A DNA stretch of 12,902 bases from the UHGV virus genome UHGV-0134334; one strand, 5' to 3'. The position numbers were made by a program, and so were the translations under genes. The DNA is from a virus. The notes beneath the pieces are model-generated. The model had not been told where the DNA came from. It did not search any database and saw only the letters and a program-made list of their open reading frames with translations. Below, piece after piece: positions 4,932-11,407 of the stretch (positions are counted from its first letter, which is position 1; each line of letters opens with the position of its first letter).

Positions 4932-5078
4932 ATGACAAAACAACTCAGTCCTTACCAGGACAAAATTCACAAACACATACTACGTGATCGCTTCCTGTCC
5001 AGCTTCAAGCAGCCTGGTCGATTCCGGGCTGAGTTGGAAAAAGTGAAGCTGATGCAGAAGGAGAAAGGTCATGAGTAA
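4932..5078 (+). CDS. Small hypothetical protein (48 aa) translationally coupled to the O-like gene
   Basis: ATG at 4932 preceded by AGGAG. Its stop overlaps the start of the next gene (ATGAGTAA). Below the length cutoff of the supplied ORF track. Confidence 0.35.
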
Positions 5079-5970
5079 CATATCTAATCTAGCCGAAGCC
5101 AGAGAGGCCAGAAGGCTACAACAACCGCATCAAAGCAGCGGTAAGGGGTATGCCTTGCTGCACCGTAAAATTATGGATGTGCCGTTTTACAAGGACGCAG
5201 AAGCTGCGCATCTGTGGGTTCACTTAATCCTCAAAGCAAAGCATACGCCTGAGTATGTAATGACTGACGCAGGAGAAATTCTGGTAGGCAGAGGGAAGCT
5301 ACTTGGCGGTAGAAACTCTCTGGCGTTTGAAACAGGACTCAAACCAGATCGCGTTCAGTACCTGCTTAGAAAGTTCAAAAAACTCGGCATGATTGACTGG
5401 GTTTCACACGGTAGATTCTCAGTTTTCTCGGTAGAGAAATATGACGATTATCAGTCAAATTTTGTACCAGCAGATTACCAGCAAATTACCACCTCAAAGC
5501 CAGAAATACCAATGCCTGTAAGCAATACTGTACCAGCAGATTACCAGCAAATTACCACAGATAAAGAATATAATAATATTATCTCTAATACTGACGTATT
5601 AGAGAGTGCCACAGCAGACAAAAAGTCTGACAAGAAAAAACCTTCCGTTAGCTGTCAGGATATTGTCGATGCTTACCACGAAATCCTTCCTGAAGCGCCA
5701 AAAATCCGCGCACTGAATGACAAGCGTAAAAACCAGATCCGAACGTTCTGGCGCAAAGCCGGAGTGATAACCCGCCAGCTTGACGGGCATGGGTTCACGA
5801 TGCAGGACTGGAGAAATTATTTGAGCTACGTAGGCGAAAATTGCCGATGGATGTTCGAAGAACGCCCAAACCATCAACGCGGAACCGTCTGGCACAAAAA
5901 GGGATTTGATTTCCTGCTTAACGACAATACCTACCTGAAAGTTCGTGAGGGTGAACACGATGACCGATAA
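5071..5970 (+). CDS. Replication initiator, lambda O / P22 gp18-like, containing the origin iterons
   Basis: 299-aa ORF in the position of O/gene 18, after cII and before a DnaB-like helicase gene. It has internal iterons plus an AT-rich tract, and a strong RBS (AAGGAG). Confidence 0.6.
5464..5595. repeat. Candidate replication origin: four 12-bp iterons (CAGCAGATTACC / CAGCAAATTACC, twice) followed by an AT-rich tract
   Basis: The 29-bp segment GTACCAGCAGATTACCAGCAAATTACCAC occurs at 5464-5492 and again at 5530-5558, each holding two 12-mer sub-repeats. AGATAAAGAATATAATAATATTATCTCTAATA follows. The arrangement matches ori-lambda, which lies inside O. Confidence 0.55.
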
Positions 5971-6376
5971 TTTTTATGCGCCGCCCCATAGCATCGAGGC
6001 AGAGCAGGCGGTGATTGGTGGATTGCTTCTGGATGATGACAGCAGTGAGCGCGTCCAGAAAGTTCTGGCGATGCTGAAGCCTGATTCATTTTACAGCCGA
6101 CCACACAAAATCCTTTTCGAAGAGATAACCAGAATGCACCGGGAGCAAAAGCCAGTAGATGGCCTGACGCTTTTCGATGAACTGGAGCGTAAATCGTTAA
6201 CGGCGTCTGTTGGCGGTTTTGCTTATATCGCTGAGATCGCAAAGAACACGCCAAGCGCCGCAAACATCGTTGCCTATGCAATGCAGGTTCGCGAAACCGC
6301 AATGGAACGCTACGCCATCAACCGCATGACTGAAGCGACGGAATTGCTCTACGCGAAGGTGAGCAAGTGCAGGTAA
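5960..6376 (+). pseudogene. DnaB-family replicative helicase (P22 gene 12-like), N-terminal domain only, 3'-truncated
   Basis: The translation (..PPHSIEAEQAVIGGLLLDD..FYSRPHKILFEEI..SVGGFAYIAEIAKNTPSAANIVAYAMQVRE..) aligns with the N-terminal domain of E. coli DnaB. The ORF ends after about 138 aa with no Walker A or RecA-like domain. Start ATG at 5960 with RBS GAGGG. Confidence 0.7.
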
Positions 6377-6729
6377 AACGCACTGATGGAATATTCGGCA
6401 CACTTGGTAACTATGTTAGCCAATTATCTAACGGCAAGATGCTGAATAATGAGCAAGTCCAGGACTTAATCAACACCTCAAAACTGATGGCAAATACTGA
6501 AGGCCAAAAGTTTAATCAGCAAATGGATGATTATCTTTCAACTTATGGAGATTCTCTCCCCAGCGGACTAACTAAGCAATTGCAATCCAGAAAAGCCAAG
6601 CTGTATGAAGATATTCAGCAGCCTGCACAACAACAGAGCAATAACCAACAACCGACAAATACCCAACAGCAGCAGAGTCAATCCGGATCATATACCTCAA
6701 AATCAGGCATTCAATTTACGGTGGAATGA
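6367..6729 (+). CDS. Hypothetical Gln-rich protein, possibly the 3' remnant of a P22 gp20-like ejection protein gene
   Basis: 120-aa ORF beginning at the deletion junction and translationally coupled (ATGA overlap) to the downstream 708-aa ejection-protein-like gene. The assignment is by synteny only. Confidence 0.35.
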
Positions 6730-8852: not shown

Positions 8853-9176
8853 TTAATCATCCATGGATGGATTGAGCTTATCTCGTGTTGATGTGGCGAT
8901 TTGTCCTACATTCCTAAGCCAAGATTTCAAATCCTTGATATTGTCATTGATTTCATGAATATCTTCTTTTTTTAGTCTGTTAATATTATTCTCAATAATT
9001 TCAATGGATTGCTCAATATCAGATATAGTGAATGATAGTTTGTTCTTCTCATCTTTTATTGAGTTTTTAAGTGCTTCGTTCTCAGTCTTGAGGTCAGATA
9101 TCTTTTGTTTTAAAGATGCCAGTTGGTACTGAACCACAATGAGTGCGATAGCTATCACGATAACTGTTGTATACAC
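8853..9176 (-). CDS. Small membrane protein with an N-terminal transmembrane helix and coiled coil (107 aa); last gene of the mnt operon
   Basis: Hydrophobic N-terminus (MYTTVIVIAIALIVVQYQ) followed by heptad-rich sequence. RBS GGAG 7 nt upstream. AT-rich. Its stop abuts the stop of the convergent ejection-protein gene (TAATTA). Confidence 0.55.
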   Translation of the reverse strand: MYTTVIVIAIALIVVQYQLASLKQKISDLKTENEALKNSIKDEKNKLSFTISDIEQSIEIIENNINRLKKEDIHEINDNIKDLKSWLRNVGQIATSTRDKLNPSMDD

Positions 9177-10244: not shown

Positions 10245-10385
10245 ATGAAGGTAAAAACACTGCGTATGCCAGAGAAGCTAGAAAAAATTCTTGAAGAAAA
10301 AGCAAAGGAAGAGTGCCGCTCATTCAGCGCAGAAGTAATTAAACGGGTGCTGGACAGCCTGAGGAGAGAGGGGATAACGGTGTGA
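10245..10385 (+). CDS. arc: Arc-like ribbon-helix-helix repressor (46 aa)
   Basis: Translation MKVKTLRMPEKLEKILEEKAKEECRSFSAEVIKRVLDSLRREGITV resembles P22 Arc (..FNLRWPREVLDLVRKVAEENGRSVNSEIYQRVMESFKKEG..). Strong RBS GGAGGA 4 nt upstream. Immediately upstream of ant. Below the ORF-track length cutoff. Confidence 0.65.
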   Translation: MKVKTLRMPEKLEKILEEKAKEECRSFSAEVIKRVLDSLRREGITV

Positions 10386-10418
10386 TTCGCTTGGATGCGG
10401 CAAAGAAATCAAAACAGT

Positions 10419-10450
10419 GAAGCCCCAACTGCGGGAACAGTCAGGGCTTC
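10419..10450. other. Stable hairpin in the arc-ant intergenic region; possible sar-like antisense RNA terminator or attenuator
   Basis: GAAGCCC-(18 nt)-GGGCTTC inverted repeat. On the minus strand it is followed by a T-rich tract (ACTGTTTTGATTTCTTTG). Confidence 0.3.
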
Positions 10451-10483
10451 GGTATCGTAAAACCACGCATAGGAATTAACGAC

Positions 10484-11407
10484 ATGAAAAGTATAGCAAC
10501 AGCAGTATCTACTATCAATGTACCATTCCACGGCGCAGAGCTTTATGTTGTCAATCACAACGGCGAACCGTATACCCCAATGAAACCTATCGTTGAGGGA
10601 ATGGGGCTAGACTGGAAATCTCAACATAAGAAGATTTCTCAACGCTTCTCGAAGGGTATGGTGGAAATCACCATACCTTCTGCCGGTGGGGTGCAAGCCA
10701 TGATTTGTATGGCTTTACGAAAATTGGCAGCTTGGTTGAACAGCATCAGTCCTAACAAAGTCCGCCCTGAAATCCGCGATAAGGTAATCCAGTATCAGGA
10801 AGAGTGTGACGATGTGCTCTACGACTACTGGACTAAAGGCCATGTAGTTAACCCACGCAAAGCTAAAAAGGCGTTGCCGGGTAAAATCACCACTGAACAG
10901 CAGGAAGCCATTAAACAACTCGTCATGAGTCGCGGTCAGTCTCTGCCAAAAGAAAAACAGGCGAAGGCAATGATTACCATGTGGTCGTCACTGAAATCTC
11001 ATTTTGGGTGTTCATACAAAGAAATCAGCGATGAGCAGTTTACCGAAGCTCTGTCACTTGCAGCTCGCGTTCCGCTTGAAGGCGAGTTAATCGGCAAACA
11101 AGAGAAGAAAGCAAACGAGCTTTCTGCAAAAGAAGCAAACAGCCTTGTATGGTTATGGGATTATGCCAACCGCTCACAGGCATTATTCCGCGAACTGTAT
11201 CCGGCGCTAAAACAAATTCAATCGAACTATTCAGGCAGATGCTACGACTACGGTCATGAGTTCTCGTATGTTATCGGAATGGCAAGAGACGTTTTAATCA
11301 ATCGCACACGAGATGTTGATATTAATGAGCCAGACGGACCAACGAATCTTTCCGCATGGATGAGACTTAAGAATAAAGAATTACCTCCTTCAGTACATAA
11401 CTACTGA
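10484..11407 (+). CDS. ant: Antirepressor Ant (P22 Ant-like N-terminal domain)
   Basis: The 307-aa ORF has an N-terminus (..VPFHGAELYVVNHNGEPYTPMKPIVEGMGLDWKSQHKKI..) typical of phage antirepressor N-terminal domains. It follows arc and is opposed by mnt, the P22 immI arrangement. Confidence 0.8.
   Translation: MKSIATAVSTINVPFHGAELYVVNHNGEPYTPMKPIVEGMGLDWKSQHKKISQRFSKGMVEITIPSAGGVQAMICMALRKLAAWLNSISPNKVRPEIRDKVIQYQEECDDVLYDYWTKGHVVNPRKAKKALPGKITTEQQEAIKQLVMSRGQSLPKEKQAKAMITMWSSLKSHFGCSYKEISDEQFTEALSLAARVPLEGELIGKQEKKANELSAKEANSLVWLWDYANRSQALFRELYPALKQIQSNYSGRCYDYGHEFSYVIGMARDVLINRTRDVDINEPDGPTNLSAWMRLKNKELPPSVHNY

Follow-up and report, generated by a model that had tools for sequence, protein, structure and literature searches.

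The stretch of DNA analysed here, referred to below as the window, comprises 12,902 nucleotides of the virus genome UHGV-0134334 and carries on its plus strand an O-like replication initiator gene (positions 5071–5970, 299 aa) of the type found in HK022, HK620 and VT2-Sakai. Upstream of O, Pfam matches occur in the order Peptidase_S24/HTH_3, Cro, Phage_CII and DUF2740, which corresponds to cI - cro - cII - orf48 as in HK620. Downstream lies gene P (5960–6376, plus strand), which is truncated and, at 138 aa, encodes no more of a DnaB-family helicase than its N-terminal domain, as recognised by the Pfam DnaB N-terminal domain and by TIGR03600 (phage_DnaB), the latter match covering only model positions 1–120 of 421. 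BLAST homology to P of HK620 stops at 6351, so that the gene is cut after codon ~131, and late-gene DNA lies beyond; the truncation at 6351 is due to a deletion. None of the complete E. coli genomes spans the deletion junction, which is present in metagenome contigs: the prophage remnant with the P deletion occurs in at least eight of these, and among the matches listed, 7 of 8 metagenome contigs have the 138-aa truncated P as a called gene. The module belongs to a cryptic P22-like prophage remnant and is a truncated member of the HK022/HK620/VT2-Sakai ("Eru3") type, its P falling short of full length.

The O-like gene is 99.2% identical in DNA to O of HK620, and its product is 98% identical to the O protein of HK022 and matches the PHROG family phrog_345 ("replication initiation O-like") with E = 3.8e-87. 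Classification of the protein comes from PHROGs only: scans against Pfam and NCBIfam returned no family above threshold, there was no match to Pfam Phage_rep_O (PF04492) at E ≤0.01, no relative turned up among PDB sequences in a profile search, and BLASTP detected no similarity to the O protein of phage λ (E = 4.8). The label "O-like" derives solely from gene position and PHROG family.

Two domains of the protein can be told apart. The N-terminal domain (residues 1–129, encoded by 5071–5457) is predicted to be a winged helix on the basis of an AF2 model, Foldseek and PHROGs, in which it also matches "DnaD-like helicase loader" families. The model was built on a 16-sequence alignment and has a mean pLDDT of 50.4, the N-domain being moderately confident and the rest poor, so that only the N-domain is usable. 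Within it, residues ~30–125 have pLDDT values of 64–90 and form, among other elements, helices at residues 81–88 and 92–104 and a beta wing at residues 108–121; the second of these helices (encoded by 5344–5382) is the putative recognition helix. Foldseek searches with the model gave weak matches (best E = 0.02), all of them to winged-helix DNA binders, and served only to name the fold class. The C-terminal domain (SCQD... to the end, encoded by 5650–5967) stands out as a conserved alignment block matching phrog_24933 and phrog_345, and is presumed to interact with the helicase. Between the two, residues 127–216 have a pLDDT of ~27, and it is in the part of the gene coding for this linker, disordered according to the model, that the repeats described below are located.

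A repeat search revealed that a 30-nt sequence, TGTACCAGCAGATTACCAGCAAATTACCAC, occurs exactly twice, at 5463–5492 and 5529–5558, the two copies lying 66 bp apart from start to start and, when extended to 35 nt, remaining 94% identical. We estimate the chance expectation of an exact 30-mer repeat within 900 bp at ~1e-13. The preliminary description, made from the sequence of the window, had reported two copies of a repeat, each with two 12-bp sub-repeats; the two copies stand, in the form of the exact 30-nt repeat, whereas the internal division needs correction. Because the sub-repeats CAGCAGATTACC (5469–5480) and CAGCAAATTACC (5480–5491) share one base, the real period is 11 bp, and each copy contains in addition a third, degenerate unit, giving an arrangement of 3+3 units. 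With unit boundaries set in the register used for the comparison of the family, iteron cluster 1 (5464–5496) consists of the 11-bp direct units GTACCAGCAGA, TTACCAGCAAA and TTACCACCTCA, and iteron cluster 2 (5530–5562) of the units GTACCAGCAGA, TTACCAGCAAA and TTACCACAGAT. The clusters flank a 33-bp spacer (5497–5529) that is variable among relatives. Since the triplets are 66 bp apart, all six units are separated by multiples of 11 bp; they are direct repeats without dyad symmetry. The motif TACCAGCA occurs at four sites only on both strands of the 12.9-kb window, all of them in the iterons. At the protein level the duplication described earlier is also present, the same ten-residue peptide occurring in O at residues 132–141 and 154–163.

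The repeats are followed, as had been proposed, by AT-rich DNA. The 40-mers starting at 5548–5564 have a GC content of ≤20%, which is the minimum for the gene and is equalled by only 68 of the 12863 40-mers in the window. In each of the seven annotated relatives, the 40-mer poorest in GC sits at the corresponding point of the gene. We place the AT-rich tract, a presumed DNA-unwinding element, at 5563–5581; if the AT-rich stem next to it is included, the segment 5559–5605 is 79% A+T. That stem is part of a perfect inverted repeat, TCTCTAATAC-tgac-GTATTAGAGA (5582–5605), which forms the right edge of the origin region and consists of two 10-nt arms (5582–5591 and 5596–5605) separated by a 4-nt loop, directly 3′ of the AT tract. 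This palindrome was absent from the preliminary description. It combines perfect pairing with a sequence that varies freely, lies within coding sequence and has an analogue in λ.

The palindrome is found at the equivalent position in all 118 loci from which the linker could be extracted, with 12 different stems among those listed. Across 26 distinct sequences, 98.1% of the cells pair and both sides change in 10 of the 10 pairs, i.e. the changes are compensatory. Folded as single-stranded DNA, the element has a predicted energy of -8.6 kcal/mol (z ~-6) on both strands. Such an element, together with the run of A and T next to it, might be a minus-strand intrinsic terminator or an RNA hairpin that has nothing to do with an origin. 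Indeed, a pattern scan rates 5605–5582 on the minus strand as terminator-like (10 pairs, with the tail TAATATTATT), and the record of phage L carries predicted minus-strand terminators at the equivalent place. However, the stem contains only 3 G-C pairs, six of the ten tail bases are T, with A interrupting them, and three sites of this kind occur in the region compared to 1.7 in shuffled sequences. Moreover, neither a leftward gene nor a promoter-like site is present downstream, and the λ origin has an equivalent palindrome. The pattern of substitution also speaks to the nature of the element: only 1 of the 260 pair cells holds a wobble pair, and A-C mismatches are absent from the nine inner pairs, a strictly Watson-Crick regime on both strands that favours a DNA palindrome over an RNA stem. 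We consider a terminator or RNA hairpin very improbable and reject it on this evidence. An Rfam scan in and near the origin region matched no RNA family.

Comparison with the HK620 and λ origins, as suggested in the preliminary description, bears out the assignment of the repeats to an origin inside the initiator gene. The rep_origin feature of HK620 (AF335538, 10369..10464) corresponds to window positions 5463–5558 and is thus the repeats themselves, and λ has the same order of parts. The "ori iteron 1/2" features of VT2-Sakai (AP000422) correspond to 5463–5492 and 5529–5558, and a rep_origin lies at the same place in the record of Sf6, where it is called a "repeat region reminiscent of the phage lambda origin", and in that of phage L, where it is a "putative origin". 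The six 11-bp repeats in gene 18 of phage L have been described as a likely origin (PMC8022706), and the replication module of VT2-Sakai is the non-λ "Eru3" type of Stx phages (PMC8044961). The repeat region had therefore already been annotated as a predicted origin, and the finding is real but ordinary. All of these public annotations are marked "putative" or were made by analogy, and we found no experimental work on the HK022/HK620-type origin, including on the binding of O to the repeats, in the searchable literature. HK620, HK022 and VT2-Sakai have the same gene and repeats as the window at 98–99% identity, HK620 differing in one spacer base that results in A146E in the protein. The main difference is one of context, in that the window has P cut at 6351 and represents a prophage remnant. 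Sf6 gene 43 and phage L gene 18 likewise have 3+3 units of 11 bp, an AT tract and a palindrome, but differ in having the core TGTCCAAC.

The repeats could in principle reflect a duplication at the level of the protein only, in which a flexible linker has been lengthened and the repeated peptide contacts the helicase or a host factor, the DNA itself having no function. The exact copying of the peptide is what one would expect in this case. We addressed selection on the repeats with a comparative set of 127 related loci, among which the linker could be recognised in 118, yielding 55 distinct combinations of repeat and helix. A 22-codon unit is present in 1 to 4 copies among these relatives with the reading frame kept, the length of O shifting by 22 residues per cluster, and P133, Q137, P155 and Q159 do not vary across the family; two loci (L030 and L031) have repeats with a 12-bp period and thus in frame, as a protein-level duplication would predict. 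The invariant P and Q residues, however, are explained by an invariant CCA core that is read in different frames. In the window the 11-bp motif starts at codon position 2 in one unit, 1 in the next and 3 in the third, being translated as VPAD, YQQI and TT, respectively, so that the 11-bp period maintains one DNA motif across three frames that give unrelated peptides.

Measures of diversity likewise argue against selection on the peptide alone. Among 15 representatives that are mutually <97% identical and all share the iteron type and specificity group of the window, diversity was 0.046 in the iterons compared to 0.227 in the gene and 0.401 in the spacer, and at third codon positions it was 0.064 in the iterons versus 0.385 elsewhere. 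Out of 798 possible placements, that of the iterons had the 4th lowest diversity; because no placement more than 33 nt away goes below 0.061, a value above that of the iterons, the few lower placements are near-overlapping shifts. Unit by unit, nucleotide diversity was 0.011, 0.026 and 0.081 in cluster 1 and 0.006–0.011 in cluster 2, against a gene mean of 0.097. In all 55 combinations the repeat triplets occupy a constant codon position and are followed on their 3′ side by an AT tract and then a palindrome of 9–10 bp with a 4-nt loop, and the distance between clusters is 66 bp except in L030 and L031, with their 12-bp period, and in L097, which has one cluster. Furthermore, the six units all change together from one lineage to another. 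This joint change speaks against a duplication serving the protein, which cannot account for the neighbouring AT tract and compensated palindrome, and we reject it as having almost no chance of being correct. These sequence comparisons support the view that the iterons, and likewise the palindrome, are under selection at the level of DNA and not merely of protein. That they are constrained by both DNA function and coding, as had been claimed, is borne out by the three reading frames, by the low diversity that extends to third positions, and by the co-variation of the core with the N-domain.

This co-variation involves the predicted recognition helix of the winged helix in the N-domain of O. 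Across the family, the helix DR(V/I)QYLLRKF pairs with the core TTACCA(G/A)C, DRVK(S/A)LLRKF with TGTCCAGC, DNKV(K/R)SLLR(S/T)F with TGTCCAAC, DR(V/I)KYLLNKF with (G/A)TGCCAAC, and DNKVKSLLDTF with AATCCAA. A single iteron core is found in 8 of 10 N-domain clusters, and the other two have origins in which GTGCCAAC and TTACCAAC units are mixed. Physical linkage could explain part of the co-variation, and there is one counter-example, the protein P0158 (from a single metagenome contig of 1619 bp), in which an N-domain of the window type is combined with a repeat region of the Sf6 type. The C-terminal domain, by comparison, reassorts freely and independently of the N-domain and iterons, each iteron core being found with 2–5 different C-domain clusters. 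Co-clustering of C-domain type with helicase type was not clean at 70% clustering.

Shuffling of this kind raises the question of whether the repeats are a recombination joint ("boundary sequence") at which lambdoid modules are exchanged or, alternatively, an array bound by a protein different from O, for instance a host factor. In addition to the variety of C-domains that accompany each iteron type, there is a mosaic junction immediately to the right of the repeats: from the AT tract onward Sf6 and the window are identical, whereas their N-domains and repeats differ. A recombination joint would need homology shared between the partners, whereas the repeats are precisely what differs between the exchanged modules, and a host-factor site would not be expected to co-vary with the phage's own N-terminal domain. 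On these grounds we reject both forms of this explanation, to which we attach next to no credence.

We conclude that the repeats are, with a probability of roughly 85%, the replication origin, predicted from sequence, of a lambdoid module of the HK022/HK620/VT2-Sakai ("Eru3") type, situated inside the initiator gene O. We infer the following mechanism. The winged-helix N-domain of O would bind the six 11-bp direct repeats, and the resulting O-DNA complex would destabilise the adjoining AT-rich tract. At the right edge, the palindrome with its strict Watson-Crick pairing may then form a hairpin or cruciform after opening of the duplex, and the C-terminal domain of O would recruit the phage's own DnaB-type helicase, the product of gene P.

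The preliminary description had equated the arrangement with that of the λ origin, and reading the λ sequence directly upholds this equation in part. The λ origin also lies mid-gene in an O of 299 codons and has its three parts in the same order, the repeats being followed by an A/T-rich tract and this in turn by an inverted repeat with a 4-nt loop. The likeness does not extend to the symmetry of the iterons, to the protein sequence or to the type of helicase partner: λ has four ~19-bp dyad-symmetric iterons spaced 20–24 bp, whereas the window has six 11-bp direct repeats in two triplets, and λ P is a loader of the host DnaB, whereas P of the window is itself of the DnaB helicase family. In λ O, the N-terminal half determines which repeats are recognised and the C-terminal half recruits the helicase, a division of labour with which the modular pattern of N- and C-domains in the window's family agrees. 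Experiments on λ and Stx phages have established that O binds the iterons and that unwinding requires the AT tract (PMC7466680). The Stx phages 933W and P27 have λ-type origins with six iterons, and repeat number in these phages is expanded and variable (PMC7466680), the extra repeats lengthening O because the origin is coding sequence. They thus resemble the window's family in that repeat copy number varies and changes the length of O, but differ from it in having true homologues of λ O and λ-type iterons.

More distant parallels are confined to the N-domain and were drawn by sequence and fold alone. One such parallel is with the replisome-organiser or DnaD-like initiators of Firmicute phages: by tblastn, the N-domain of the window shows ~26–33% identity to Staphylococcus and Lactobacillus phage proteins, a remote similarity. 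Among such systems, G38P of SPP1 binds repeats within its own gene. Iteron plasmids with winged-helix Rep proteins resemble the window in having direct repeats, rather than palindromes, as putative binding sites; the winged helix of O is a moderately confident prediction with weak fold matches. Plasmid iterons, which usually have DnaA boxes nearby, are ~17–22 bp long, in contrast to the 11-bp units of the window, for which handcuffing and copy control are not implied.

Because the helicase gene is truncated, the replicon in the window is probably dead: the origin is intact in sequence but most likely unable to fire on its own, and the prophage, being a remnant, is probably incapable of replicating alone. 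Two more speculative ideas, which even jointly we regard as unlikely, are that the palindrome is no incidental feature but a general hairpin or cruciform that helicase loading at lambdoid origins requires, or that O and the origin of the helicase-less remnant act as a decoy against superinfecting phages with the same origin specificity. The latter idea resembles the inhibition phenotype of ectopic ori-λ (PMC3349717, PMC4488673).

As a discovery the origin is of little importance; what the comparative data do is strengthen an existing origin prediction. The family would nevertheless offer an experimental system, with five or six naturally occurring combinations of iteron type and recognition-helix type for specificity swaps, natural alleles with 1 to 4 clusters, and a stem that is fully compensated across relatives. 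The Stx2 prophage of E. coli O157:H7 Sakai has a replicon of this type, and since the dosage of the toxin gene in induced cells is driven by replication, a defined origin would be useful there.

The plus-strand open reading frame of 299 codons that encodes the O-like replication initiator (O; 5071–5970) contains two exact copies of a 30-nt direct repeat, TGTACCAGCAGATTACCAGCAAATTACCAC, which we located by repeat search and sequence inspection at 5463–5492 and 5529–5558, 66 bp apart. This confirms the repeat array that the preliminary description had placed inside the gene. The two 12-bp sub-repeats it had assigned to each copy are also present, but because they share one base the actual period is 11 bp, and a third, degenerate unit extends each copy. 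Specifically, the units of iteron cluster 1 (5464–5496) are GTACCAGCAGA, TTACCAGCAAA and TTACCACCTCA, those of cluster 2 (5530–5562) are GTACCAGCAGA, TTACCAGCAAA and TTACCACAGAT, and TACCAGCA does not occur again on either strand of the window. The peptide duplication said to be encoded by the repeats was found as a 10-residue segment at residues 132–141 and 154–163. An AT-rich stretch does follow the repeats (AT tract, 5563–5581) and is the GC minimum of O, the 40-mers that start at 5548–5564 having a GC content of 20% or less, as do only 68 of the 12,863 40-mers of the window. The other such 40-mers lie at 2448–2555, between the N-side genes, and at 8935–8980, near the end of the gp16-like gene, and at no other place in the window. 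With these corrections, the original interpretation of the region is supported.

At the DNA level O shares 99.2% identity with its counterparts in HK620, HK630, VT2-Sakai and many Stx phages, and its product is 98% identical to HK022 O. Pfam places cI (Peptidase_S24 and HTH_3), cro, cII and a DUF2740 orf48 homologue upstream of O, and a gene with a DnaB N-terminal domain downstream. The protein itself has no Phage_rep_O match in Pfam and no match in NCBIfam; it is assigned to phrog_345 ("replication initiation O-like"), and PHROGs labelled "DnaD-like helicase loader" also match its N-terminal third. The replication genes of VT2-Sakai have been named "Eru3", with low similarity to λ O and P (Llarena et al., PMC8044961). 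The HK620 record carries a rep_origin (join 10369..10464) that corresponds to window positions 5463–5558, and in that of VT2-Sakai the equivalents of 5463–5492 and 5529–5558 are labelled "ori iteron 1" and "ori iteron 2", bound by "O protein". The equivalent place is annotated in gene 43 of Sf6 and marked "putative origin of replication" in gene 18 of phage L, both homologues being ~65% identical. Since the same bases are already annotated in the records of relatives, the origin described here is a rediscovery of a known, predicted one; the literature that we searched yielded no experiment testing this type of origin.

Comparison of the region with that of 6 annotated relatives, 33 loci from bacterial genomes and 80 loci from viral contigs provided four lines of sequence evidence (architecture, copy number, reading frame and diversity) that point to selection on the repeats at the level of the DNA. 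Every collected locus has repeats. In the 118 loci whose linker could be recognised, the triplets of units sit at a constant codon position in all 55 distinct combinations of repeat and helix, with clusters 66 bp apart followed by the AT tract, while the motif itself varies. The exceptions are two loci, from a Leclercia MAG (L030) and Silvania hatchlandensis (L031), in which ATTACCAA-type units recur with a period of 12 bp instead of 11, and therefore in frame (NYQ.NYQ.DYQ), in clusters 68 bp apart (linker positions 50 and 118). The number of 66-bp clusters (22 codons each) differs among close relatives (loci L093, L094 and L097; proteins P0001–P0027 and P0123–P0147). Two is the usual state, one is found in L097, three are found in L093, L094, many E. 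coli proteins of 321 aa and Sf6-type proteins of 318 aa, and four are found in P0001 (343 aa).

Since 11 is not divisible by 3, the frame shifts from unit to unit (codon positions 2, 1 and 3 in turn), and in the window the units are translated into unrelated peptides; the TGTCCAAC units of phage L are likewise read in different frames. The family-invariant residues P133, Q137, P155 and Q159 correspond to the invariant CCA core of the units read in differing frames. Diversity was measured on the 64 distinct coding sequences with the iteron type of the window, thinned to 15 representatives so that no two reached 97% identity. Nucleotide diversity among these was 0.046 in the iterons (66 positions), compared with 0.227 in the gene and 0.401 in the 33-bp intercluster spacer, and at third codon positions it was 0.064 for the iterons versus 0.385. 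Of 798 possible placements that of the iterons ranked fourth lowest; beyond 33 nt from it the minimum rises to 0.061, so the few that rank lower are shifts that nearly overlap it.

Across the relatives the iteron core co-varies with a short stretch within the N-terminal domain (N-domain) of O. DR(V/I)QYLLRKF is found with TTACCA(G/A)C, DRVK(S/A)LLRKF with TGTCCAGC, DNKV(K/R)SLLR(S/T)F with TGTCCAAC, DR(V/I)KYLLNKF with (G/A)TGCCAAC, and DNKVKSLLDTF with AATCCAA. When the modules were clustered at 70% identity, 8 of 10 N-domain clusters had a single iteron core, the remaining two having mixed origins, with both GTGCCAAC and TTACCAAC units, and each core was combined with 2–5 C-terminal-domain clusters and with several palindrome stems. 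Sf6, for example, differs from the window in N-domain and repeats and is identical from the AT tract on. The repeats are equidistant from both flanks, but only the right-hand flank has been separated from them by recombination. The sole exception seen to this coupling is P0158, a protein from a single 1619-bp ENA metagenome contig, in which a window-type N-domain accompanies Sf6-type repeats (CPTVVQRLS, i.e. TGTCCAAC); this may reflect a chimeric assembly or a real recombinant with mismatched specificity. An AlphaFold2 model built on a 16-sequence alignment is moderately confident for residues ~30–125 (pLDDT 64–90) and predicts a winged helix (helices 81–88 and 92–104, beta wing 108–121), with the 13-residue helix 92–104 coinciding in the model with the co-varying segment. 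Foldseek matches in the PDB were weak (best E = 0.02), and all were to winged-helix DNA binders (among them CodY, CadC/SmtB, TubR, BlaI and MarR). Residues 127–216, which include the part encoded by the repeats, AT tract and palindrome, have a pLDDT of ~27, which places the origin in DNA that codes for a disordered linker and is under lax coding constraint.

The palindrome, absent from the preliminary description, follows the AT tract as a perfect inverted repeat with 10-nt arms and a 4-nt loop (5582–5591/5596–5605). All 118 loci with an extractable linker have a perfect 9–10-bp inverted repeat at a constant position after the AT tract, with the loop T(G/A)A(C/A) and 12 different stem sequences among those listed. 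We counted pairs in an alignment of 26 distinct palindrome sequences. A caveat is that each fragment had been positioned around the best inverted repeat of its locus, although this repeat always falls at one codon position. Pairing was seen in 98.1% of cells versus 67% in shuffles, and fell to 31–53% when the partner was shifted by 1–3 columns; both-sided changes occurred at all ten pairs, with 65 compensatory cells, and the covariation score was 0.72 versus 0.16 in shuffles. There was a single wobble cell, and the nine inner pairs were without mismatch. In a pattern scan the minus strand of the palindrome scored weakly as terminator-like, but its use as a terminator is unlikely; the strict Watson-Crick pairing, on both strands, favours a DNA palindrome (hairpin or cruciform) over an RNA stem. 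Folded as single-stranded DNA, 5560–5612 gives −8.6 kcal/mol for the plus strand and −8.4 kcal/mol for the minus strand (z ~ −6 on both).

Direct examination of the λ origin (λ 38600–39700) showed four dyad-symmetric iterons of ~19 bp at a spacing of 20–24 bp, then an A-rich tract and an inverted repeat with 12-nt arms and a 4-nt loop, all located mid-gene in the 299-codon λ O. The arrangement proposed earlier, that of ori-λ, therefore holds for the order of the parts (repeats, A/T-rich tract, inverted repeat) and not for the type of repeat, the family of the initiator or the partner protein. No similarity between the two O proteins was detectable by BLASTP (E = 4.8). Both genes are exactly 299 codons long (λ O at 87–986 of its locus, L130), and their origins occupy nearly equal relative positions (coding-sequence positions 394–535 in the window, 349–504 in λ), which could be coincidence or convergent design. 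For λ and λ-type Stx phages it is experimentally established that O binds the iterons, that the AT tract is required for unwinding and that added iterons make the O protein longer (PMC7466680). By analogy, and given the covariation of the palindrome, the complex of O with DNA might destabilise the AT tract and the palindrome might form a hairpin once the duplex opens. The co-variation with the iteron core suggests that the winged-helix domain would bind the six 11-bp units, and the C-terminal domain would presumably recruit the DnaB-type helicase of the phage, although C-domain types and helicase types did not group together cleanly at 70% clustering.

In this window the helicase gene, P (5960–6376), retains the DnaB N-terminal domain only. 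Homology to HK620 P stops at 6351, where a deletion (junction 6351/6352) cuts P after about codon 131 and joins what remains to the final ~100 codons of a gene for a gp20-like ejection protein (6367–6729); none of the nin, late-regulator, lysis, terminase and head genes is present. Following the ~100 C-terminal residues of the gp20-like protein are a gp16-like DNA transfer protein, Arc/Mnt, Ant and a tailspike head-binding domain. Sar antisense RNA of the P22 immI region (Rfam RF00262, 76.6 bits) matches 10416–10482 on the minus strand, just upstream of ant (10484–11407), with Arc/Mnt-like genes adjacent. A LysR-type regulator gene is represented by its 3′ part at 36–767. The same arrangement, beside host PALP, GntP and LysR genes, is shared by at least 8 ENA metagenome contigs (L122–L129). 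Neither the window nor these counterparts contain an integrase arm (int/xis), and none of the complete E. coli genomes in our collection spans the deletion junction or has the arrangement. The truncated P, the downstream gene content, the host neighbours and the lack of an integrase arm indicate a cryptic P22-like prophage remnant, whose origin keeps an intact sequence but most likely cannot fire alone. Taken together, the comparative evidence for this origin is stronger than the "putative" labels of the databases, and points toward straightforward experiments.
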